This document shows, piece by piece, positions 292-13,592 of a DNA stretch of 13,592 nt (the stretch's first letter is position 1; each line of letters starts with the position of its first letter). The stretch covers positions 1 through 13,592 of the IMG/VR virus record IMGVR_UViG_2778261231_000014, one strand, 5' to 3'. This stretch comes from a virus. Lineage: Duplodnaviria > Heunggongvirae > Uroviricota > Caudoviricetes. A program made the position numbers and the translations under genes. Under the pieces are notes generated by a model. The model did no database searches. It was not told the origin of the DNA and worked only from the letters and a program-made list of their open reading frames with translations.

Positions 292-878
292 TGGTTGCCT
301 CCTTTGCGAAGCTGGGCGGCGATATCTTCGAGAACGCCATCAGAGAATGAGCGGTCAAAATCGCCTTCCGGCGCATTAGCCATAAACTCAGTAGAGGTAA
401 GAATCATCCTGGCAATATCCGCGGCGTTCTTTGCAGTATCATCAATAAAACCAGCTTCCCAGGCAGCCAGCATTCTGTTCGCCACAAAGTAAGCTCCCTC
501 CTTGCGTGCTTCAGTCTTCACTTCAGCCAGGAAAGCGTCGGTGGCTGGGGTTTTGTTATCTGACTCCAGCCACTGGTTGTAGTAATAATCGAACATGCCA
601 GTAGGATAACCACATCCGCTGTGCACGTGGTCTTTCATAGCAGAACCACACATGCAGTAGTCATTGTCAGTATTGCTAATGATGTCGATAAGTTGCTGTG
701 TCCGTTGCTTCAACATCGCATTCTCCGCAGCCAGCGCCGCGCATCTGGCTTTAAGCTCTGATAACGGGCCGGAAATCTTTTTGGTGGTCATGCCGATCAT
801 GGTGGCAATGCGAGCACTATTCAGGCCCGGGTTATTACGCAGGGCTGCAAGAATCTGCCCACGAATTGTTATGGTCAT
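288..878 (-). CDS. Hypothetical phage protein (196 aa) with a possible N-terminal winged-helix segment and a Cys/His cluster
   Basis: ATG at 878-876 preceded by AAGGGGG; ATGA start/stop overlap with the DnaC-like gene implies translational coupling. Contains CMCGSAMKDHVHSGC. Family not recognised with certainty. Confidence 0.6.
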   Translation of the reverse strand: MTITIRGQILAALRNNPGLNSARIATMIGMTTKKISGPLSELKARCAALAAENAMLKQRTQQLIDIISNTDNDYCMCGSAMKDHVHSGCGYPTGMFDYYYNQWLESDNKTPATDAFLAEVKTEARKEGAYFVANRMLAAWEAGFIDDTAKNAADIARMILTSTEFMANAPEGDFDRSFSDGVLEDIAAQLRKGGNQ

Positions 879-1729
879 GCTGCCCCCTTAGAACGGTAAG
901 AATCCCACGTGAATGACAGAGTGCACCCGCCGCCATCGCTCATGCGGTCAAGAACGCGCTCGCCGATGAATGCTGCCAGCTCTTCCCTTGTCTGGTTGCT
1001 GATCAGGATGGTCGGCTTCATCCGCTCGTACCGGGTGTTGATGATTTCGAACATGATCAGCTTCTCTGCTTCGCTGCCGAACTGGACGCCCACCTCATCG
1101 ATGATCAGCAGGTCCGGAGTGGTGAAGTGCGAAATCACGTCGTTCTCGCAGCGCGTCGCTGTTTTCGACCACGTTGATTTGAACTCACGGGCAATCTTCA
1201 GCGCCGTGGTGAAAATTACCGGGCTCTGGTGGTTCTCGATGACGTAGCGGGCGATCGCCAGGGCGAGGTGGTTTTTACCGGTTCCCGGCTTTCCGCACAT
1301 CACCAGCCCACCTCCCTGCTTCAGCCGCTCGGGCCACTTTGCGGCATAAGCCTGGCAAACACGCAGCGCGCGTTCTGACTCTTTGCCAACCGGCTGGTAG
1401 TTTTCCAGCGTGCACGTCACAAAGCGCTCGGGGATTTCGAGCTGGCGCAGCAGGCGGTCGATGTTCTGCTGGCGCGCGCGGTCTTCCCAGCGTTTTTTCT
1501 CTGCATACAGGAAGGTCAACTCATCGCGCAGGCAGCCCGGACAGCGAGTCGGCGGTGACGGTAGTTTTATCAGGCTGCTGGTAAGAACGCGTTTACGCTG
1601 TTCGTACTCGCCATGTTTCTCGCACAGCACTGTTTCGCAGACGGTCTCGCAGTTAGGGAGTTGCTCTGGAGGTCTACCAAGGACTTCCAGCATTTTTTCG
1701 ATAGCGTCGATTTTTTCGAGCAGTTCCAT
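875..1729 (-). CDS. DnaC-like replicative helicase loader (AAA+ ATPase, IstB/DnaC family; lambda P-position analog)
   Basis: Walker A GKPGTGKNHLALAIA and Walker B LLIIDEVG in the translation. Preferred start is ATG 1729-1727 with GAGGGA upstream, 2 nt after the O-like stop; the track ORF extends to 1747. Confidence 0.85.
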   Translation of the reverse strand: MELLEKIDAIEKMLEVLGRPPEQLPNCETVCETVLCEKHGEYEQRKRVLTSSLIKLPSPPTRCPGCLRDELTFLYAEKKRWEDRARQQNIDRLLRQLEIPERFVTCTLENYQPVGKESERALRVCQAYAAKWPERLKQGGGLVMCGKPGTGKNHLALAIARYVIENHQSPVIFTTALKIAREFKSTWSKTATRCENDVISHFTTPDLLIIDEVGVQFGSEAEKLIMFEIINTRYERMKPTILISNQTREELAAFIGERVLDRMSDGGGCTLSFTWDSYRSKGAA

Positions 1730-1731
1730 AC

Positions 1732-2601
1732 TCAGTCCCTCGCCCATGATGGGATTTCAGTCTGGCCGTAGTCTTTGCCAGCGAAGTTCTCGGATACGCG
1801 AGACTGATTGCGGGTAGGCTGCTTGGCGCCCTTAGGCTCAAACAATCCCTGCCAGCCGTTAGCGATGCTCTGGTTTATAATTTCTTCAGGCTGATATCCG
1901 CTGCACTTGCAACGCTCGAGCAGGTTGATGGCCTGGGTAACCGTCTGCTGAGACTTGATCGGTTTCTTCAGGTCGCGACGATAATCGACCCATGACTTCC
2001 AGACTGAAACTGACAGCCATTCAGGAAGGTCAACACCAGCCGGATCGAACGAAGCATGTTTGGGGGATTTAGGGGGTTTATTAATATTGTCTTTATTGTC
2101 TTTTGTAATAGTGTCTTTTGTGTGTCCCCATTTTGGTGACAGGGTTGTCACTGTTTTGGTGACACTTTTTGTCACCACCGTAGGGACACTGTCACTACCA
2201 TGGTGACAGTCACTACTATGGTGACATTTTGGCGCAGGCTTAGTGCCCGGAATTACCCACTCACTCAGGTTTTTGTTGGGCCCGATCAGCATGCCGTCGG
2301 ACACCAAAACATTCATCGCAATGAGTTCGTTTTTGGCAGCGTTAACCTTCTGGCGAGGTAGCCTGGTCAGCTCAGAAAGTTGTGAGTCTGCTATGCGGTC
2401 CATCTTCTTGTTGAACCCATAGGTTTTGCGGCAAACAGCATGAGCTACCTTGGCCTGATTTTTGGTCAGGTTCGCGCCGATAAGCTCCTCATACAACTCG
2501 TTTGCCAGACGGGTGTACCCATCGTCTGTATCGGCCACGCGTTGCTCCTGTATTCCCGAAACTACAGCGGGAAAGTTGAGAATTTCTGCGGTGTTTGACA
2601 T
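1732..2601 (-). CDS. Replication initiator protein, lambda O-like N-terminal domain
   Basis: N-terminus MSNTAEILNF...ADTDDGYTRLAN...LTKNQAKV...RKTYGFNKKMDRIADSQLSELTRLP...GPNKNLSEW closely follows the lambda O N-terminal domain as I remember it. ATG 2601-2599 with GGGAG RBS; the track ORF starts at an upstream in-frame GTG at 2628. Iterons lie inside the central linker. Confidence 0.85.
   Translation of the reverse strand: MSNTAEILNFPAVVSGIQEQRVADTDDGYTRLANELYEELIGANLTKNQAKVAHAVCRKTYGFNKKMDRIADSQLSELTRLPRQKVNAAKNELIAMNVLVSDGMLIGPNKNLSEWVIPGTKPAPKCHHSSDCHHGSDSVPTVVTKSVTKTVTTLSPKWGHTKDTITKDNKDNINKPPKSPKHASFDPAGVDLPEWLSVSVWKSWVDYRRDLKKPIKSQQTVTQAINLLERCKCSGYQPEEIINQSIANGWQGLFEPKGAKQPTRNQSRVSENFAGKDYGQTEIPSWARD
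2075..2230. repeat. ori-like element inside the O-like gene: four to five roughly 22-bp iterons plus an adjacent AT-rich tract
   Basis: Repeated units TTTTGGTGACAGGGTTGTCACTG / TTTTGGTGACACTTTTTGTCACC / ...GGGACACTGTCACTA / CCATGGTGACAGTCACTACT / ATGGTGACATTTT at 2131-2230; AT-rich tract with repeated ATTGTCTTT at about 2075-2130. Same layout as lambda ori inside O. Confidence 0.6.
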
Positions 2602-2604
2602 ACT
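2576..2604 (+). promoter_or_regulatory. Putative promoter for a short + strand (antisense) transcript: TTGAGA-17-CATACT
   Basis: -35-like TTGAGA at 2576-2581 and -10-like CATACT at 2599-2604 with 17-bp spacer. Weak match; proposed mainly because a strong + strand terminator lies about 70 nt downstream. Confidence 0.25.
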
Positions 2605-2640
2605 TACTCCCGTTACTTGCCGTAACACAGTGTGATAAGG

Positions 2641-2676
2641 GCCTTTGAAGTTACCGCTTCAAGGGCTTTTTCTTTT
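2641..2676 (+). terminator. Rho-independent terminator on the + strand, in the gap between the O-like and YdaT-like genes
   Basis: 10-bp stem GCCTTTGAAG / CTTCAAGGGC (one G-U pair), 6-nt loop, then TTTTTCTTTT. The U-tract is 3' only on the + strand, opposite to the local genes. Confidence 0.6.
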
Positions 2677-2686
2677 CTTGTGCCTC

Positions 2687-3229
2687 TCATATAACCCCCA
2701 ACATTGACGTGACCATCGTCATCAGCGGCCCTACCTGCTCCGGCATGAGGCGGAACAGCGACGCTATACCCTCGCTTACCTCTTTCAGCTTCTGATGCTC
2801 TGGAGCGCCCAGAAGCACTGCCTGCTTAGCTTCGGCACACTCTTTCATCGCGGATGCGATCAGCGACATCGTGTCGTTCTGTGGTGCAAGGCGGTTGCGA
2901 AATTCCAGTGGAAGTACCGCCATGATTGCGGGCGTCAGCTGGCGCACGTTCTCGCGGTACTGCTCAGAGTCGAAACGGTTATCCAGAAAGCGAAAAAGTT
3001 TCTGGCGCGCCCTGCTGATGTCTTCCGGGAAGCTGATGGCGGTACCGCCCTGCTCCCGGTATTCGTTGATGATCAGTGCCGAAACGACGTCCTGATTGTC
3101 CAGCGCCGAAGACCATGCCCGGACCGCATCGCGGATCTTTTCGTGGTCTGGCGCCGCCTTAGGTTGAGCGCGGTTTATCATCGCTCCCGGGTGTATTCCG
3201 GTATTGTGTTGATACGCAAGTGAATGCAT
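2687..3229 (-). CDS. YdaT-like regulatory protein (CII-position analog of Rac-type prophages)
   Basis: Sits immediately downstream of the cro-like gene. Motifs EYREQGG and LTPAIMAVLPLEFRNRL resemble Rac YdaT as I recall it. Start could be ATG 3229 or internal ATG 3181. Confidence 0.6.
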   Translation of the reverse strand: MHSLAYQHNTGIHPGAMINRAQPKAAPDHEKIRDAVRAWSSALDNQDVVSALIINEYREQGGTAISFPEDISRARQKLFRFLDNRFDSEQYRENVRQLTPAIMAVLPLEFRNRLAPQNDTMSLIASAMKECAEAKQAVLLGAPEHQKLKEVSEGIASLFRLMPEQVGPLMTMVTSMLGVI

Positions 3230-3258
3230 TGCTTTCCCTTTCGTGGTTAGGGCCGCCG

Positions 3259-3480
3259 TTAGGCGGCAAAGATACCTGGATATAGAACTTCGCGAGGAAG
3301 CCCCGTCACTTCTTCGTACTTACGCATTTTTGTTACTGGAAGGCTGCCACCTCGCTTTTTAAGCATATTGATGGCCTGTGGCGTTACGCCGACCTTTTCA
3401 GCAAGCACCTTTTGAGAGCCGCCCACTGCATTAATGGCTTTCTCAAGCGGGGTGCTTGCGTTGGATTCTTTGTTGATCAT
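3259..3480 (-). CDS. Cro/YdaS-like small HTH regulator (73 aa)
   Basis: HTH-like segment QKVLAEKVGVTPQAINMLKK; GGAG RBS 7 nt upstream of ATG 3480; divergent from the repressor gene across an operator region. Confidence 0.7.
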   Translation of the reverse strand: MINKESNASTPLEKAINAVGGSQKVLAEKVGVTPQAINMLKKRGGSLPVTKMRKYEEVTGLPREVLYPGIFAA

Positions 3481-3597
3481 GTTTTGCTCCGCTCATGTGT
3501 AATCAACACCATGTTAATTCATGATGTGGATTAAATCAACATTATGGTGATGGAAAAAATCCACATGTTGTTTACCATGCATGGAGCGGAGGGTTTT
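3481..3597. promoter_or_regulatory. Immunity operator/promoter region (OR-like) between the divergent cro-like and cI-like genes
   Basis: Four copies of AATC(A/C)ACA or its complement at 3501-3508, 3525-3532 (TGTGGATT), 3534-3541, 3558-3565. 3525-3541 forms an imperfect 17-bp palindrome TGTGGATTAAATCAACA. A leftward TTGATT-17-TAACAT promoter candidate lies on the - strand. Confidence 0.6.
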
Positions 3598-4308
3598 ATG
3601 AGTAGCATTTCTGAAAGAATTAAATTTTTACTGGCAAGGGAAGGCTTGAAGCAGCGGGATTTGGCTGAGGCTTTGTCGACTAGCCCACAGACCGTCAACA
3701 ACTGGATAAAAAGAGACGCGTTAAGTCGTGAGGCGGCGCAACAAATATCTGAAAAATTCGGTTATTCTCTTGACTGGTTATTAAATGGAGAGGGTTCTCC
3801 AAAGAAGGATCTGGAGAGCAACATCCCGCCAGAGTCTGAGTGGGGAGTTGTTGATGCATGGGATAAAGACACCCCGCTTCCTGTTGATGAGGTTGAAGTG
3901 CCATTTCTTAAGGATATTGAATTTGCGTGTGGTGATGGTCGAGTTCAGTGCGAAGACCACAATGGATTTAAGCTGAGATTCTCCAAGGCAACGCTCAGAA
4001 GAGTGGGTGCAAATAGTGATGGTTCTGGAGTGCTTTGCTTTCCCGCTTCTGGTGACAGCATGGAGCCCGTTATTCCTGACGGCGCAACGGTAGCAGTCGA
4101 TACAGGCAACAAGCGGATTATTGACGGCGAACTCTATGCTATTAACCAGGGCGATTTAAAGCGCATAAAGCAGCTTTATCGAAAGCCTGGTGGGAAGCTA
4201 TTAATACGAAGCATCAATCGCGATTATGACGATGAAGAGGCTGATGAGGCAGATGTCGAGATAATCGGTTTTGTGTTCTGGTACTCGGTATTGCGATATC
4301 GCCGATAA
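3598..4308 (+). CDS. CI-like phage repressor (N-terminal XRE-type HTH plus C-terminal S24/LexA-like peptidase)
   Basis: HTH RIKFLLAREGLKQRDLAEALSTSPQTVNNWIK; S24 signature GDSMEP and a downstream Lys (LKRIK). Start ATG 3598 with GGAGGG RBS; in-frame ATGs from 3544 exist but overlap the operators. Confidence 0.85.
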   Translation: MSSISERIKFLLAREGLKQRDLAEALSTSPQTVNNWIKRDALSREAAQQISEKFGYSLDWLLNGEGSPKKDLESNIPPESEWGVVDAWDKDTPLPVDEVEVPFLKDIEFACGDGRVQCEDHNGFKLRFSKATLRRVGANSDGSGVLCFPASGDSMEPVIPDGATVAVDTGNKRIIDGELYAINQGDLKRIKQLYRKPGGKLLIRSINRDYDDEEADEADVEIIGFVFWYSVLRYRR

Positions 4309-4457: not shown

Positions 4458-5219
4458 ATGACACAGTTTCAACTTGCATTAATCGCCAGAGAAGTTGATG
4501 GAGAAGTCATCCATCTTCGCACCAAAGACGGTTACATCAATGCCACCGCAATGTGCAAGTCTGCTGGGAAGCTACTTGCTGACTATACACGACTAAAAAC
4601 AACGCAAGATTTTTTTGATGAATTATCCCGCGATATGGGGATTCCCATATCGGAATTAATTCAATCATTTAAAGGCGGAAGAGCAGAGAATCAAGGGACT
4701 TGGGTTCATCCAGACATCGCAATTAACTTAGCTCAGTGGCTATCTCCAAAATTTGCAGTGCAAGTATCGAGATGGGTGCGTGAGTGGATGTCAGGCGAAA
4801 GAGCGCCTGCCGAACTCCCTATCCACCTTAAGCGGTATATGACAAACCGAGGCAGGGTTCCTCATACGCACTTTTCTATGCTTAATGAACTGACGTTTAA
4901 CCTGGTTGCGCCACTTGAGCAGGCAGGATATACGCTGCCAGAAAAAATGGTCCCTGATATTTCAGAAGGTAGGGTTTTCTCGCAATGGCTTCGTGAAAAC
5001 CGGGGTGTTGAGCCGAAGACGTTCCCAACATATAACCATGAGTACCCAGATGGCCGGACATTCCCGGTACGTCTATACCCAAACGAATATCTTGCAGATT
5101 TCAAACAACACTTCAACGAAGTGTGGCTGCCTCAGTACGCTCCTAAATATTTTGCAGAACGAGACCAAAGGGCATTGACGTTGATTGAGAAAATCATGTT
5201 GCCTGACCTTGATTCCTAA
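4458..5219 (+). CDS. KilA-N domain protein (253 aa) with an unassigned C-terminal domain
   Basis: N-terminal approximately 100 aa (INATAMCKSAGKLLADYTRLKTTQDFF...VHPDIAINLAQWLSPKFAVQVSRWV) fit the KilA-N/APSES-like fold. AGGA RBS; lower GC than the flanks. Confidence 0.65.
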   Translation: MTQFQLALIAREVDGEVIHLRTKDGYINATAMCKSAGKLLADYTRLKTTQDFFDELSRDMGIPISELIQSFKGGRAENQGTWVHPDIAINLAQWLSPKFAVQVSRWVREWMSGERAPAELPIHLKRYMTNRGRVPHTHFSMLNELTFNLVAPLEQAGYTLPEKMVPDISEGRVFSQWLRENRGVEPKTFPTYNHEYPDGRTFPVRLYPNEYLADFKQHFNEVWLPQYAPKYFAERDQRALTLIEKIMLPDLDS

Positions 5220-7228: not shown

Positions 7229-7368
7229 GCGAAAGCCCACCGAAGTGGGCCCGCCATGTCCGGCCTCACCGACCAAAGTTACACCGGAAACAACATTAAA
7301 ACCAAAGTTAACCCAATGGGCGCTATCAATGGTCCGGGGATTCTAACACCCAAAAATGAGGATCTCAC

Positions 7369-10300
7369 ATGGAATTCTTTAATGTGGTTAAAGCCACTCA
7401 GAAATCCGGAAAGCAAGATGCAGTGGTCTGGTTCACTGCTAAAACCGAGGCTCGCGCCAATCTGATGCTGGATGTTGCGCTGGAAGATGCAGGTATCGAA
7501 ACAGGTCGGGGTAAGGACTACGCCAAACCGATTCGCACTGATTTCCCAGTTGTCGACGGCCTGCCGAAAGAAGGTGAAGTTGATTTTACCTGGTGTGATC
7601 GCTACGAGCTTCAGGACGATGGGCGCACCTGGCTGCCAAAAGCCGCTGGTGTGTCTACTGGTTCCGTTGACGCCCCCTACACACCTACTCCGACCGTAAT
7701 CGTTGAAGATGCGACTGCGTCCGAAATTGTCCCGGTTGAAAACCGTACTCCAGCGGTCCGCTTTGCCGTCCATCTGATGAACGATAAATACCAAACCCAC
7801 GTCACTAAAGAGCAGCAGTTGGCTGCCAGCGAAATGTCACTGGATGAAGGCAATACATATCTCCATAGCCTGCTTGTGGCAAGGAACGATGTGCCCGCGA
7901 CCGCCAAACTCAGCCTGAATGCTGAGTGGAAAATGATTCGGGCGGTTAAGGACATTTTCACACCCGACGAAGAGCACGAACCAAGATTGATCGCTGCATT
8001 CATGTCTGACTGGGTGAACACCGATGCCGGTGACCGCAATCAACTGGTAGAAGACTGGCGCAGTGGTAAGTTGCAGTTGCTCAAAACTGAAACCAGCAAC
8101 GCTGCTGACGTTACAACGGGTCAAGATCTCACTGTTGAGGACGGTATCCAGACCGACGAGAACGGCCGGGCAGAAGGTGGCGTCGTTGATGGTGAAGTCG
8201 ATACCGAAGAGCAATCCCAGCAGACACAGCAACCGAACCTGATCGTTGTTGCCACCCTGCCATTCCGCCAGCGCGTACTGGCTCAGTTCATCGGTGATGG
8301 TGAATATCTCTATCACATCGACGCAGGGCAGAAAAATGAGATTGTCCGCCTTGAGATGGACACCGATGACGCGTACGTCCAGAACCTGCTGCTGGCAGCT
8401 GAGAATGTGGAAGCATTCAAAAAAGCCATTGAGCACGATATTCATAAAGTCGTGAATGCCGTTAAGAAAGTCTTCCCTGTCGATGGAAAAATCCCTGAAC
8501 TCGCAACCTTAATCCAGTTTTTGAAATTGTGGTTCGCTACAGATCACATCGACCGCGGTATCCTCGTTCGCGAATGGGCCGCCGGTAATCGCATCAGTAG
8601 TGTGCAGCGTACTGATTCCGGCACTAATGCCGACGGCGGTTACGTCACTGACCGTGGACCTGACGCACACCACACACTGGACACTCTCGATTTAGAGATT
8701 GCGTGTGCCCTTCTGCCTATGGACTTCAACCACTTCGAGATCCCGGGCAGCATTCTTCGTCGCGCTAAAGAAATCGTGACCAAAAAAGAAGAACCATGGA
8801 AATCATGGAGCAACATCCTGCGCAATCAGCCAGGCGTTCTGGGTGTTAACCGCACGGCTATTTTTAACCTGGTACGTATCGCACCGGAAAATATTCATTT
8901 AACTCCTGTCGCTCACCTGGAATTTGTTAACCAGACCATGACAGCCGCGTTCAATTCCGCGGTCGAGTTATTGCCGTTGCATGAGGCTGAACCCGCAGCA
9001 CAGGAAATTCCCCAACCTGAAGGTAAGGAGTCTCCGCGCAAATCCTTCTGCACTCACGAAGAGAACCTGCAACGCGTGCGTGAAGAAGGAGCACGCCGCC
9101 GCGCAGAGGAAGCGGCAGCACAACCGCAGAAAGTCGAACAAGAACTGGTTAAAAATGTCGGCAACGGAATATTCGACGTTACGGCTTTGCTGCAGAACTC
9201 AGCAACTCATGGCACGAAAAAGGCTACGGAGACCACCAGCAATGTGCAGGTTCAAGAAACTGTCAGTGATGAAAAACAAGCTGGTGATGAAGTACAGCCA
9301 GGCGAAAGCAGTCTGGAGTCTGGTGAAGAGTCAGATACCAGCCAGAAGGACGATGTAAACCAGAATACGGATTCTGTCGCCAAAAATAGCGATTCTGTAA
9401 GCCAAACCGAACCAGTTGCAGCACAAACCGAGCCAGAAGCGCAATCTGACGAACCGGCTGTTGTTTATCCCGCTTATTTCGAGCCAGGCCGCTATGAAGG
9501 GCTGCCAAACGAGGTTTACCACGCCGCCAACGGCATCAGCTCAACCCAGGTGAAAGATGCGCGCGTTTCGCTGATGTACTTCAATGCGCGCCACGTAGAG
9601 AAAACCATCGTCAAAGAGCGCTCAGCGGTGCTGGACATGGGCAACTTGGTGCATGCGCTGGCGTTGCAGCCTGAACTACTGGACGCAGAATTCAGCGTTG
9701 AACCGGTGATCCCTGAAGGCGCATTCACAACGGCCGCGACCCTGCGCGCCTTTATCGATGAGCACAATGCCAGCCTGCCGGCGCTGCTGTCTGCCGACGA
9801 CATCAAGGTGTTACTGGAAGAGTACAACGCCACCCTGCCGCCGCAGGTTCCGCTTGGCGCTAACCTGGAAGAAACGGCACAGAACTATATGGCGCTGCCA
9901 GCTGACTTCCAGCGTATTGATGGTGACCAGAAGCAGACGGCGACGGCAATGAAGGCATGCATTAAAGAGTACAACGCCACCCTGCCGCCGCCGGTTAAAA
10001 CCAGCGGCAGCCGTGACGCGCTGCTGGAGCAGTTGGCAATCATCAACCCTGACCTTGTGGCTCAGGAAGCACAGAAACCGGCACCACTGAAAGTGTCCGG
10101 TACCAAAGCAGACATGATCCAGGCCGTGAAGGCAGTCAAACCAGATGCCGTATTTGCCGACGAACTGCTGGATGCCTGGCGCGATAACCCGGAAGGAAAA
10201 GTGCTGGTCACCCGCCAGCAGCTGAGCACCGCGCTGAATATTCAAAAAGCGCTTCTGGCACACCCGACCGCCGGCATGCTGCTGACCCACCCTAGCCGAG

Positions 10301-10758
10301 CCGTTGAGGTGAGCTACTTTGGTTTTGACGAGGAGACGGGCTTGGAAGTTCGTGTGCGCCCTGACCTTGAGATCGACCTGGATGGCGTGCGTATAGGTGC
10401 AGACCTGAAAACCATCAGCATGTGGAATGTTAAGCAGGAAAGCCTGCGCGCCAGGCTACACCGGGAAATTATTGAACGTGATTATCACCTGAGCGCGGCT
10501 ATGTACTGCGAAACCGCAGCGCTGGATCAGTTCTTCTGGATTTTCGTCAACAAAGACGAGAACTACCACTGGATCGCCATCATCGAGGCATCCGCTGAAC
10601 TACTGGAGCTGGGTATGCTCGAGTACCGCAAAGCGATGCGCAATATCGCAACCGGATTCGACACAGGTGAATGGCCAGCGCCAATCACTGCTGACTACAC
10701 CGACGAACTGAACGACTTCGACCTGCGCCGCCTTGAAGCGCTGCGTACTCAGGCATAA
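7369..10758 (+). CDS. recE: RecE-like exonuclease VIII (1129 aa): long N-terminal region, acidic linker, C-terminal PD-(D/E)XK nuclease domain
   Basis: Single long ORF with GAGGA RBS. C-terminal RVRPDLEIDLDGVRIGADLKT fits a PD...(D/E)xK signature; N-terminal DFPVVDGLPKEGEVDFTW resembles what I recall of RecE. Directly followed by an annealing-protein gene. Confidence 0.7.
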   Translation: MEFFNVVKATQKSGKQDAVVWFTAKTEARANLMLDVALEDAGIETGRGKDYAKPIRTDFPVVDGLPKEGEVDFTWCDRYELQDDGRTWLPKAAGVSTGSVDAPYTPTPTVIVEDATASEIVPVENRTPAVRFAVHLMNDKYQTHVTKEQQLAASEMSLDEGNTYLHSLLVARNDVPATAKLSLNAEWKMIRAVKDIFTPDEEHEPRLIAAFMSDWVNTDAGDRNQLVEDWRSGKLQLLKTETSNAADVTTGQDLTVEDGIQTDENGRAEGGVVDGEVDTEEQSQQTQQPNLIVVATLPFRQRVLAQFIGDGEYLYHIDAGQKNEIVRLEMDTDDAYVQNLLLAAENVEAFKKAIEHDIHKVVNAVKKVFPVDGKIPELATLIQFLKLWFATDHIDRGILVREWAAGNRISSVQRTDSGTNADGGYVTDRGPDAHHTLDTLDLEIACALLPMDFNHFEIPGSILRRAKEIVTKKEEPWKSWSNILRNQPGVLGVNRTAIFNLVRIAPENIHLTPVAHLEFVNQTMTAAFNSAVELLPLHEAEPAAQEIPQPEGKESPRKSFCTHEENLQRVREEGARRRAEEAAAQPQKVEQELVKNVGNGIFDVTALLQNSATHGTKKATETTSNVQVQETVSDEKQAGDEVQPGESSLESGEESDTSQKDDVNQNTDSVAKNSDSVSQTEPVAAQTEPEAQSDEPAVVYPAYFEPGRYEGLPNEVYHAANGISSTQVKDARVSLMYFNARHVEKTIVKERSAVLDMGNLVHALALQPELLDAEFSVEPVIPEGAFTTAATLRAFIDEHNASLPALLSADDIKVLLEEYNATLPPQVPLGANLEETAQNYMALPADFQRIDGDQKQTATAMKACIKEYNATLPPPVKTSGSRDALLEQLAIINPDLVAQEAQKPAPLKVSGTKADMIQAVKAVKPDAVFADELLDAWRDNPEGKVLVTRQQLSTALNIQKALLAHPTAGMLLTHPSRAVEVSYFGFDEETGLEVRVRPDLEIDLDGVRIGADLKTISMWNVKQESLRARLHREIIERDYHLSAAMYCETAALDQFFWIFVNKDENYHWIAIIEASAELLELGMLEYRKAMRNIATGFDTGEWPAPITADYTDELNDFDLRRLEALRTQA

Positions 10759-10763
10759 GGGGA

Positions 10764-11882
10764 ATGATGATGGAAAACACGAATATCGTAACCGCTGAAC
10801 AGCAGACTCCAAACACGATCTCAGCCAGCAATGCCATTTTCAACGTGCAGGCTTTAACCCAGCTTCAGTCTGTCGCCGGGTTGATGGCACAGGCAGCCGT
10901 AACGGTGCCTGAGCACCTCCGCGGCAATCCGGCAGACTGCATGGCCATCATCATGCAGGCGATGCAGTGGGGTATGAACCCTTACGCCGTGGCGCAAAAG
11001 ACGCACCTGGTTAACGGTGTCCTGGGATACGAAGCGCAACTGGTTAATGCGGTGATCTCCAGCTCAAACGCCATCGTTGGCCGCTTTCACTATGAGTACG
11101 AGGGCGACTGGTCGAAATGTGCCAGCAGCCGCGAGATAACCGTTAAAAAGCCTGCGAAAGGTGGCGGGACGTACGACAAGAAAGAAATGGTACGCGGTTG
11201 GGAAAGTGCTGATGAACAAGGACTGTCGGTACGGGTAGGTGCCGTTATTCGCGGTGAAAGTGATATCACCTGGGGAGAGCCTGTTTTCCTCTCCAGCGTA
11301 ATCACACGTAATTCTCCACTTTGGGTATCAAACCCGAAACAGCAGATCGCTTATCTGGCACTCAAATACTGGGCGCGCCTGTATTGCCCTGCAGTTGTTC
11401 TTGGTGTGTACACCCCTGATGAGATTGAACAGCGCACAGAAAAAGAGATCAACCCAACGCCGCAACGCGTTAGCCTGGCTGATATCTCAGGTGACACCGT
11501 CACAACCACGCAAAGCGCACAGGAATCGTCGGTAAATGTCGACTCTCTTGCCGATGATTTCCGCGAACGCATCGAATCTGCTCAGGACGTGGATAGCGCC
11601 AAATCGCTGCGTGCCGACATTGAAACGGCGAAAGCTACGCTGGGATCCGCACTATTCACCGAGCTGAAAAACAAAGCCGTAAAGCGTTATTACCTAGTGG
11701 ATGCACGCAACAAGGTTGAGGAGGCTATTAAATCCCTGCCCCAGCCCGACGAGCCGCATGCAGCCGAACGGTTCGCTGAAGCCGAGCGCATGCTTGCATC
11801 TTCAAAGCGTCACTTAGGCGATGAACTGCACGATCAATTCAGCATCACCCTGGCGGATATGAAACCGGAATACGTGGCCTGA
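10764..11882 (+). CDS. Single-strand annealing protein, Bet/RecT (Red-beta) superfamily
   Basis: ADCMAIIMQAMQWGMNPYAVAQKTHLV and SPLWVSNPKQQIAYLALKYWARLYCPAVVLGVYTPDE align by eye with lambda Bet. The true start may be the third ATG at 10770, which has better spacing from AAGGGG. Confidence 0.65.
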   Translation: MMMENTNIVTAEQQTPNTISASNAIFNVQALTQLQSVAGLMAQAAVTVPEHLRGNPADCMAIIMQAMQWGMNPYAVAQKTHLVNGVLGYEAQLVNAVISSSNAIVGRFHYEYEGDWSKCASSREITVKKPAKGGGTYDKKEMVRGWESADEQGLSVRVGAVIRGESDITWGEPVFLSSVITRNSPLWVSNPKQQIAYLALKYWARLYCPAVVLGVYTPDEIEQRTEKEINPTPQRVSLADISGDTVTTTQSAQESSVNVDSLADDFRERIESAQDVDSAKSLRADIETAKATLGSALFTELKNKAVKRYYLVDARNKVEEAIKSLPQPDEPHAAERFAEAERMLASSKRHLGDELHDQFSITLADMKPEYVA

Positions 11883-12204: not shown

Positions 12205-12402
12205 ATGGATGATATTTTGGTAACGTCAGACCTGACCAGTCGCTACAAAATTTCACGCAAAACCCTTTGGTCATGGCAAAGTGCAGACACAATGCCTCGG
12301 GGCTTCGTATGCCCGTTCCCACCCCCTGACTGGCCCGGCAACCCTAACCGCTGGCGCTCTGAGTCAATCAAAGAGTGGGAGGATAAAAAGAAGATAAATT
12401 AA
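12205..12402 (+). CDS. AlpA/Xis-like small DNA-binding protein (excisionase or integrase regulator family)
   Basis: [34 protein letters not shown]...[12 protein letters not shown] fits the AlpA/phage-excisionase HTH pattern. ATG 12205 with GGAGAG RBS; the track ORF starts at an upstream TTG at 12160. Confidence 0.55.
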
Positions 12403-13592
12403 CTGAAGGGCTCTCCGATGATCTCTTCAAGATGGCTCTGCCAAACGCGGAGCCAGTGTTTCTGATCATCGATATAGTCATGAAGGTTGTAATGCGCCAT
12501 AACCCCCACCATCTGATGCCCGAGCAGCTTTTCAATTACGTGCGGCGGGCAACCTAACTCAGAGAGATTTGTGGCTATCGTCCGCCTCATATCATGAAGC
12601 GACCACTCTGCCATACCTGTTCCATTCCAAATAGAACGGGCGTAATTGGATGCCACAGGTGAATGAACGGGCGAATCTTTGATCCCGCCATCAATTTTAC
12701 GTTGTGAAGTCACCAGGTGATTGGTGTTTATTTTCTTGAGGTGATTTCTGACCAGGTTAACGGCGGCGTCTGAGAGTCCCCTTCTAATATGTACCCGAGT
12801 TTTATAACTGCCCGCAGGCACGACCCACTCATTATCATCCAATCGAAACCATGATCTCTCACTAAGTCGAATCTCAGCCGTACGGCATCCGGTAAGCATA
12901 ATAAATTTCACCAGGAAAACGGACTCTATCGACATATGGCTTTTCAACCACTGATAGATTTTGCGCAGATCGTCATCGTCCATCCTGCGAGTTCTCTTTT
13001 TAGGCTTTTGCCCGACATCAGATGGCAGTAATCCCTCGAGTGGGTTTGAGGCGATCACACTTCTGTTAACGCAGAACCTAAACGCCCGTTTGCACAGCGA
13101 AAGCATGTAATGAGCCATCACCCTGCTTTCTATAGAATCGAAGACGTTGATCCAGTGCATTTTCGCTGTGTTATCGACTTTGACATTCTTCATCGGTTCG
13201 GCGATATGTTTCTCAAACACCTGGCGATAGTAATCGACTTTAACTAGCCCGTTAGCGATACAGTGCCTTTCAATCCAGTAATTGAACGCTTCGGCAACGG
13301 ACATCGCTTCCTGTCGGGTCTGCTTATCCAGCTTCACCTGCTCTCGCGGATCCAGTCCCTCAGTTAACCAGTTTCTGAATTGTTGGCGACGCTCTCTTGC
13401 CTGGGTGATACTCATTGCAGGATAATCACCAACATTGAGTTTTACCGCTTTACCGGCCCAGCGATACCGATAGAAAAATGATATTTTTCCGGCCTGGCTG
13501 ATTCTGGCGTTGAGCCCGTGCGAATCAGAAATAATCTCGATATCATCTCTTTTCTTGCCGAGCGCCTTCCTGAGCTTTGTGTCGGTGATCAT
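12399..13592 (-). CDS. int: Tyrosine site-specific recombinase (phage integrase, P4-like family)
   Basis: 397-aa ORF with catalytic-region motifs LTGCRTAEI (Arg), HDMRRT (His-x-x-Arg) and LLGHQ...AHYN (His/Tyr); N-terminal arm-binding-like domain. The ATG coincides with the window end. Confidence 0.9.

Follow-up and report, generated by a model that had tools for sequence, protein, structure and literature searches.

A probable M3/oop-type small RNA gene at the cII/O junction of a phi80/Rac-like lambdoid prophage

The window, which is the whole stretch of 13,592 nucleotides that was analysed, is the early region of a lambdoid prophage of the phi80/Rac-like type, and the element found between its cII-like and O-like genes, on the strand opposite to both, is with a probability of about 85%, as judged from its sequence, an expressed small RNA gene of the M3/oop type. 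Positions 2612-2671 are identical in 60 of 60 bases to positions 36229-36288 (complement) of the phi80 record JX871397, in which the ncRNA PHI80_R1 is named “M3 RNA” and annotated “homolog of lambda oop RNA”, and the record X13065 carries the misc_feature “M3 RNA”. The identity with phi80 extends as an exact block of 113 bp (2588-2700), and in a megablast comparison of 2300-3300 with phage records the phi80 match covers cII, M3 RNA, a Cro-like regulator and replication protein 15. In reviews that cite Bothwell, Stark and Altman (1976), M3 RNA is described as an RNA induced by phi80 and as a classic non-tRNA, hairpin-type substrate of E. coli RNase P; its end positions and its exact site of cleavage by RNase P are taken here from the GenBank annotation and from reviews. 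An OOP-like antisense RNA gene at the cII/O junction, which the original prediction had proposed, is borne out by this identity and by a promoter that aligns with lambda pO. Since phi80 M3 RNA consists of the same 60 nt, the + strand transcript that had been predicted is already described for an identical sequence. This RNA has been known from phi80 for decades and is nothing unusual in a lambdoid prophage.

The features of the window are collected in Table 1. In the closest complete E. coli genomes, 77% of the window is matched at 98% identity. The credible genes between 288 and 3480 all lie on the - strand, which leaves the terminator opposed to this gene block, as had been proposed. An AT-rich stretch (2068-2115) adjoins the iterons, gp15 binding sites are annotated at the equivalent place in phi80, and the iterons together with the AT-rich stretch are presumed to be a replication origin within the O-like gene. 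A GTG at 2628, which begins the longest open reading frame and would make the O-like gene overlap the RNA, was rejected as the start, because the ATG at 2601 has a GGGAG Shine-Dalgarno sequence and matches the annotated start of phi80 gene 15, and because the Pfam domain starts at residue 21 and the upstream stretch varies by indels among relatives. CAT is present at the position of the O-like ATG in every relative.

Table 1. Features of the window and of the candidate RNA gene, in window coordinates
Feature	Position	Strand	Basis or remark
DnaC/IstB-like ATPase	875-1747	-	
O-like replication initiator, 289 aa, ATG at 2601-2599	1732-2601	-	Pfam Phage_rep_O, 3.3e-38
Five palindromic iterons, TGTCAC-N7-GTGACA	2123-2226	.	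within the O-like gene; promoter about 390-490 bp away
-35 hexamer TTGAGA of the pO-like promoter	2576-2581	+	promoter scan; aligned to lambda pO -35 TTGAGT
Extended -10, TGaCATACT	2596-2604	+	scan; conserved in relatives
M3/oop-like small RNA, 60 nt, GUUACUUGCCGUAACACAGUGUGAUAAGGGCCUUUGAAGUUACCGCUUCAAGGGCUUUUU	2612-2671	+	100% identity to phi80 M3 RNA
5' hairpin, GUUAC / UUGCC loop / GUAAC	2612-2626	+	fold; IMG/VR relatives
Single-stranded linker, ACACAGUGUG-AU	2627-2636	+	fold; IMG/VR relatives
Intrinsic terminator	2637-2676	+	scan, fold, covariation across 30 sequences
cII-like gene, 180 aa, phi80 CII type	2687-3229	-	Pfam YdaT family
Cro-like HTH protein	3259-3480	-	
CI-like S24 repressor	3544-4308	+	
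KilA-N protein	4458-5219	+	
RecE	7369-10758	+	
RecT	10764-11882	+	
Integrase	12399-13592	-	

The phi80 “CII” protein, which corresponds to the cII-like gene of Table 1 (2687-3229, -), matches the Pfam model YdaT_toxin and bears the RefSeq name “toxin YdaT family protein”; phi80 CII and YdaT are two naming traditions for one gene family. Elsewhere in the window, a match to the Rfam family isrB, an Hfq-binding sRNA first described in Salmonella, lies at 7230-7327 (-) with 38.2 bits (gathering score 35) and has a GC-rich hairpin, GGGCCCACUUCGGUGGGCUUUCG, at its end; it is placed just upstream of, and opposed to, the RecE-like gene. A promoter-like GTGAGA-17-TAGAAT with a TG extension (7368-7340, -) stands about 6 nt upstream of this match.

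The promoter of the candidate RNA gene, TTGAGA-17-CATACT with the -10 hexamer at 2599-2604, was recovered by a scan at the place where the original prediction had put it, with nine of 12 consensus positions matched and TG at 2596-2597. It had been called weak, and it is not particularly weak, having five of six matches in the -35 hexamer, a 17-nt spacing and a TG-extended -10; from its sequence it looks like a constitutive sigma-70 promoter of the extended -10 type. CAT at 2599-2601 is the reverse complement of the O-like start codon, the TG is supplied by the second codon, TCA, and the -35 hexamer sits within O-like codons 7-9 (I-L-N), read on the opposite strand. The O-like N-terminus, MSNTAEILNF (2571-2601, -), resembles MTNTAKILNF of lambda O, and the remainder of the two proteins diverges. 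The codons of this N-terminus carry the -35, the spacer and the -10 of the antisense promoter.

The terminator scan of the window finds a + strand hairpin at 2637-2670 followed by TCTTTTCTTG. A core with a 10-bp stem (2641-2650 / 2657-2666), a 6-nt loop and the T run TTTTTCTTTT directly after it (2667-2676) is present in the sequence as it had been described, in the + orientation, and inclusion of a U.G closing pair makes the stem 11 bp long (2641-2651 / 2656-2666) with the 4-nt loop UACC. The 60-nt RNA folds at -22.9 kcal/mol (z = -3.8), a value as good being reached by one of 200 shuffles, and the + strand of 2605-2680, folded as RNA, reaches -24 kcal/mol (z = -3.4). Consensus scans of the window returned seven promoter-like sites where 12.5 are expected and 24 terminator-like sites where 14.3 are expected. 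Consensus matches for a promoter and a terminator alone are not beyond chance; the significance of the element comes instead from its identity to a known RNA, its conservation and its covariation. That promoter-like matches are no commoner than chance, and that the cII-like stop codon is closely followed by the hairpin, would suit a hairpin that serves the - strand mRNA, as a stabiliser, a processing site or a terminator after the cII-like gene, next to a + strand promoter match that arose by chance. Such a role is very improbable, given that the fold of the - strand here is no better than that of its shuffles (z = -0.35), that no run of U follows the hairpin on that strand, that phi80 has a known + strand RNA of identical sequence, and that the O-like gene requires read-through from upstream.

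Comparison of relatives also points to the + strand. With the cII-like protein as bait, 33 loci were fetched from different Enterobacteriaceae species, and in 28 of them the same layout, a start-codon -10, a 5' hairpin, a linker and a terminator, follows right after the cII-like stop codon on the opposite strand; the genera with this architecture include Enterobacter, Klebsiella, Leclercia, Citrobacter and Yokenella. RNAalifold recovered the terminator hairpin from an alignment of 30 members, with compensatory changes at eight of 14 pairs. Standard pairs fill 95.1% of the cells. The figure is 80.3 +/- 1.2% for shuffles, of which 0 of 500 came as high as the real alignment, and 36-55% for slid controls; the covariation score is 0.445 against 0.206. 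Many of the stem pairs are G.U and turn into A.C mismatches on the other strand, and since a stem so rich in G.U cannot pair there, the constraint acts on the + strand RNA.

A 5' hairpin followed by a terminator is obtained when each member is folded, with 5' hairpins of several unrelated sequence classes. A single column-wise structure of the 5' hairpin for all subtypes was abandoned, as the subtypes are not alignable there, and the 5' hairpins were judged by per-sequence folds. At least 119 IMG/VR contigs contain the terminator core of the M3 type without a mismatch. At least 100 IMG/VR relatives keep the 5' stem GTTAC/GTAAC unchanged around a loop that varies (TTGCC, TTGGC, CTGAC, CCGAA, CCGAC), and the linker, which spans 10-12 nt between the two hairpins, holds a motif, ACACAGTGT, that is nearly invariant within the M3 subtype. 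Elsewhere in the window this motif is not enriched beyond chance and gives no sign of a set of operator-like sites. In most of the subtypes other than M3 the 5' hairpin has a longer loop, the linker reads ACCWGAA and the tail is weaker (CUUUCGCC), and their stem sequences differ from the M3 stem by compensatory changes. The loci L011, L021, L031 and L032 are without the RNA, and another gene follows their cII-like gene directly. This following gene has a poly-C/poly-G run whose length varies from about 7 to 11 bases.

The promoter is conserved before genes that are unrelated. Its -10 is CAT(A/T)(A/C)T in all 31 family members, in which it contains the start codon of whichever gene follows, and the TG extension is present in 29 of the 31. 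Among 114 IMG/VR contexts, CATACT or CATAAT is found in 107, of which 102 have the TG and 103 have the hexamer at one fixed distance from the terminator stem. The proteins encoded downstream in these contexts have at least eight unrelated N-termini, including MSNTAEI, MSKTRKKY, MAEKLMHN, MAGQTKQV, MPAINEKA and MSSLSQLY, and all of the downstream genes have NCA as second codon, for Ser, Ala, Thr or Pro, from which the TG derives. This invariant second codon points to selection on the promoter sequence rather than on the protein.

The persistence of the -10 and TG before unrelated genes also speaks for a reading in which the promoter is the functional unit and the RNA a by-product, so that convergent firing tunes transcription of the origin and the replication genes and the terminator serves only to limit the length of the antisense transcript. 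The origin iterons lie about 400 bp from the promoter, and in lambda the inactivation of pO lowers plasmid replication, raised OOP does not, and interference between polymerases was proposed by the authors. However, the body of the RNA is constrained as well, with its invariant 5' stem around a variable loop, its ACACAGUGU linker, unchanged throughout the M3 subtype, and its 5' hairpin, found in all subtypes. A promoter without a working RNA is possible on this balance and is held only tentatively, and a role of the promoter and a role of the RNA are compatible and can both apply.

The extent of the M3-type RNA sets what it can pair with. Its +1, taken from the phi80 annotation, is G2612, which abuts the O-like Shine-Dalgarno sequence GGGAG (2611-2607) and lies 11 nt upstream of the ATG; its 3' end at 2671, with the T run reaching 2676, falls 15 nt short of the cII-like stop codon (2689-2687). 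The RNA is perfectly complementary to the cII-O spacer (85 nt) of the early mRNA, and it pairs with this spacer only, because it starts past the Shine-Dalgarno sequence and ends before the cII-like stop. A short antisense RNA, as predicted, is what the coordinates give, with a length of about 60 nt in place of about 65 nt. The proposed complementarity to the ribosome binding site and start codon of the O-like gene has to be given up, as the RNA begins at 2612 and both elements lie under the -10 region of the promoter instead.

These boundaries bear on whether the RNA mainly represses translation of the O-like gene by pairing at its ribosome binding region. The duplex would start 1 nt away from the Shine-Dalgarno sequence, at -11 relative to the ATG, in a part of the mRNA that usually lies under the 30S subunit, whose footprint is well established, and its geometry equals that in lambda. 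The complements of the Shine-Dalgarno sequence and of the start codon are nevertheless absent from the RNA, and in lambda OOP has no effect on the stability of the O-P mRNA and a pO-minus mutant shows no decrease of O protein, all of which makes translational repression as the main function unlikely.

The regulatory target and mechanism of the M3-type RNA in phi80-type phages are what we infer from lambda. The promoter would fire against the early rightward (pR-type) operon, with transcription starting at G2612 and stopping after about 60 nt at the intrinsic terminator. The RNA would then pair with the cII-O spacer of the early polycistronic mRNA and RNase III would cut the duplex, as it does for lambda OOP; by this cut the upstream cII-like message may be detached and made less stable, which would shift the decision toward lytic growth. 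Firing head-on against pR-type transcription, the promoter may in addition alter how much transcription reads through into the O-like and DnaC-like genes and the origin, a role that has been proposed for lambda pO. By analogy, the RNase III/cII mechanism is given an even chance of holding for the phi80-type RNA. Because the cII coding sequence lies outside this RNA, the mechanism known from lambda may not hold here in the same form, and since it abuts the O-like Shine-Dalgarno sequence and has no cII-like overlap, an effect on O-like translation or a processing by RNase P is possible.

A more doubtful proposal is that the phi80-type RNA, which is wholly intergenic and an RNase P substrate, acts unlike lambda OOP, and that the start-codon promoter is a portable cassette. 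The RNA might provide a site for processing by RNase III or RNase P and thereby determine the balance between cII-like and O-like expression, it might occlude the ribosome standby region of the O-like gene, or its processed hairpin might act in trans. If this is true, the strictly conserved extended -10 that is formed from a start codon and an NCA codon and stands before unrelated replication genes marks a portable regulatory cassette for phage replication modules. The papers that were read yielded no experimental test of M3 RNA function.

The M3/oop-type element is a textbook part of lambdoid early regions, and automated pipelines will go on “rediscovering” it, because Rfam has no family for it and the RefSeq features of the genomes listed do not include it. 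For this element the Rfam search gave no family at the gathering score, and none for OOP or M3 at any threshold tried (including E <= 10); the best sub-threshold match was ctRNA_pGA1, with 20.4 bits for a threshold of 45. Of 5426 complete E. coli genomes, 83 carry a 141-bp region with the element, and many of these are phi80dlacZ laboratory strains; no RNA feature lies under the match in the RefSeq features of the 30 genomes listed of these 83. Oop/M3-like RNAs about 15-80 nt downstream of YdaT-type cII stops, on the opposite strand, form a larger unannotated set, of which none is in Rfam. A covariance model built from the collected family would remedy the missing annotation. The start-codon design of the promoter also means that a synonymous change of codon 2 should remove the promoter and leave the protein unchanged.

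Among known systems, phi80 is the closest. It shares the -10 element, the terminator, the position between cII and the initiator gene and the opposite orientation, and its cII gene is about 90% identical to the cII-like gene of the window; it differs in its -35, which is TTGATT and not TTGAGA, and in its O-like gene, which is a different allele beyond codon 5. A mosaic joint lies at 2587/2588, within the promoter spacer, with the phi80-identical block (2588-2700) on one side and the other O-like allele and the -35 to its left. A lambda/P22 hybrid with a comparable joint at -19 of pO has been reported (PMC3349717). In HK639, an “M3-like RNA” is annotated at the equivalent position.

The analogy with lambda OOP, which the original prediction had drawn, holds for the junction, the orientation and the promoter, and fails for the overlap with cII, as the RNA ends 15 nt before the stop codon. 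In lambda, the final 55 nt of the cII coding sequence are covered by OOP; the lack of such an overlap in the window follows from a cII-O spacer of 85 nt, against 32 nt in lambda. OOP is also longer, with 77 nt against 60 nt, the lambda cII gene is of 294 bp whereas the cII partner in the window is a YdaT-family protein of 180 aa, and the body of the RNA, with 20 of 60 positions identical in an ungapped comparison with OOP, gives no convincing alignment beyond +4. OOP exerts RNase III-dependent antisense control of cII in lambda, the convergent promoters pO and pR control replication, and OOP has only a minor role under some conditions. Control of lambda pO by LexA is not claimed here: of three lambda replication papers searched, two do not name LexA, and the third names it just as the SOS repressor, with no link to pO.

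The order of the genes is that of lambda, with cI, cro, cII, the RNA, O and a P-like gene, and lambda OOP shares with the RNA of the window its locus at the cII/O junction, its orientation, its self-termination and, by the folds of both RNAs, its plan of two hairpins. Lambda, read leftward, has TTGAGT-17-CATAAT, in which CAT is the complement of the O start codon, followed by the complement of the Shine-Dalgarno sequence and then by the G that is the +1 of OOP. In the alignment, lambda pO and the promoter of the window are identical in 34 of 44 bases (77%) from -39 to +5, and they share the 17-nt spacer, the TG extension, the O start codon within the -10 and a +1 G placed 11 nt from the ATG.
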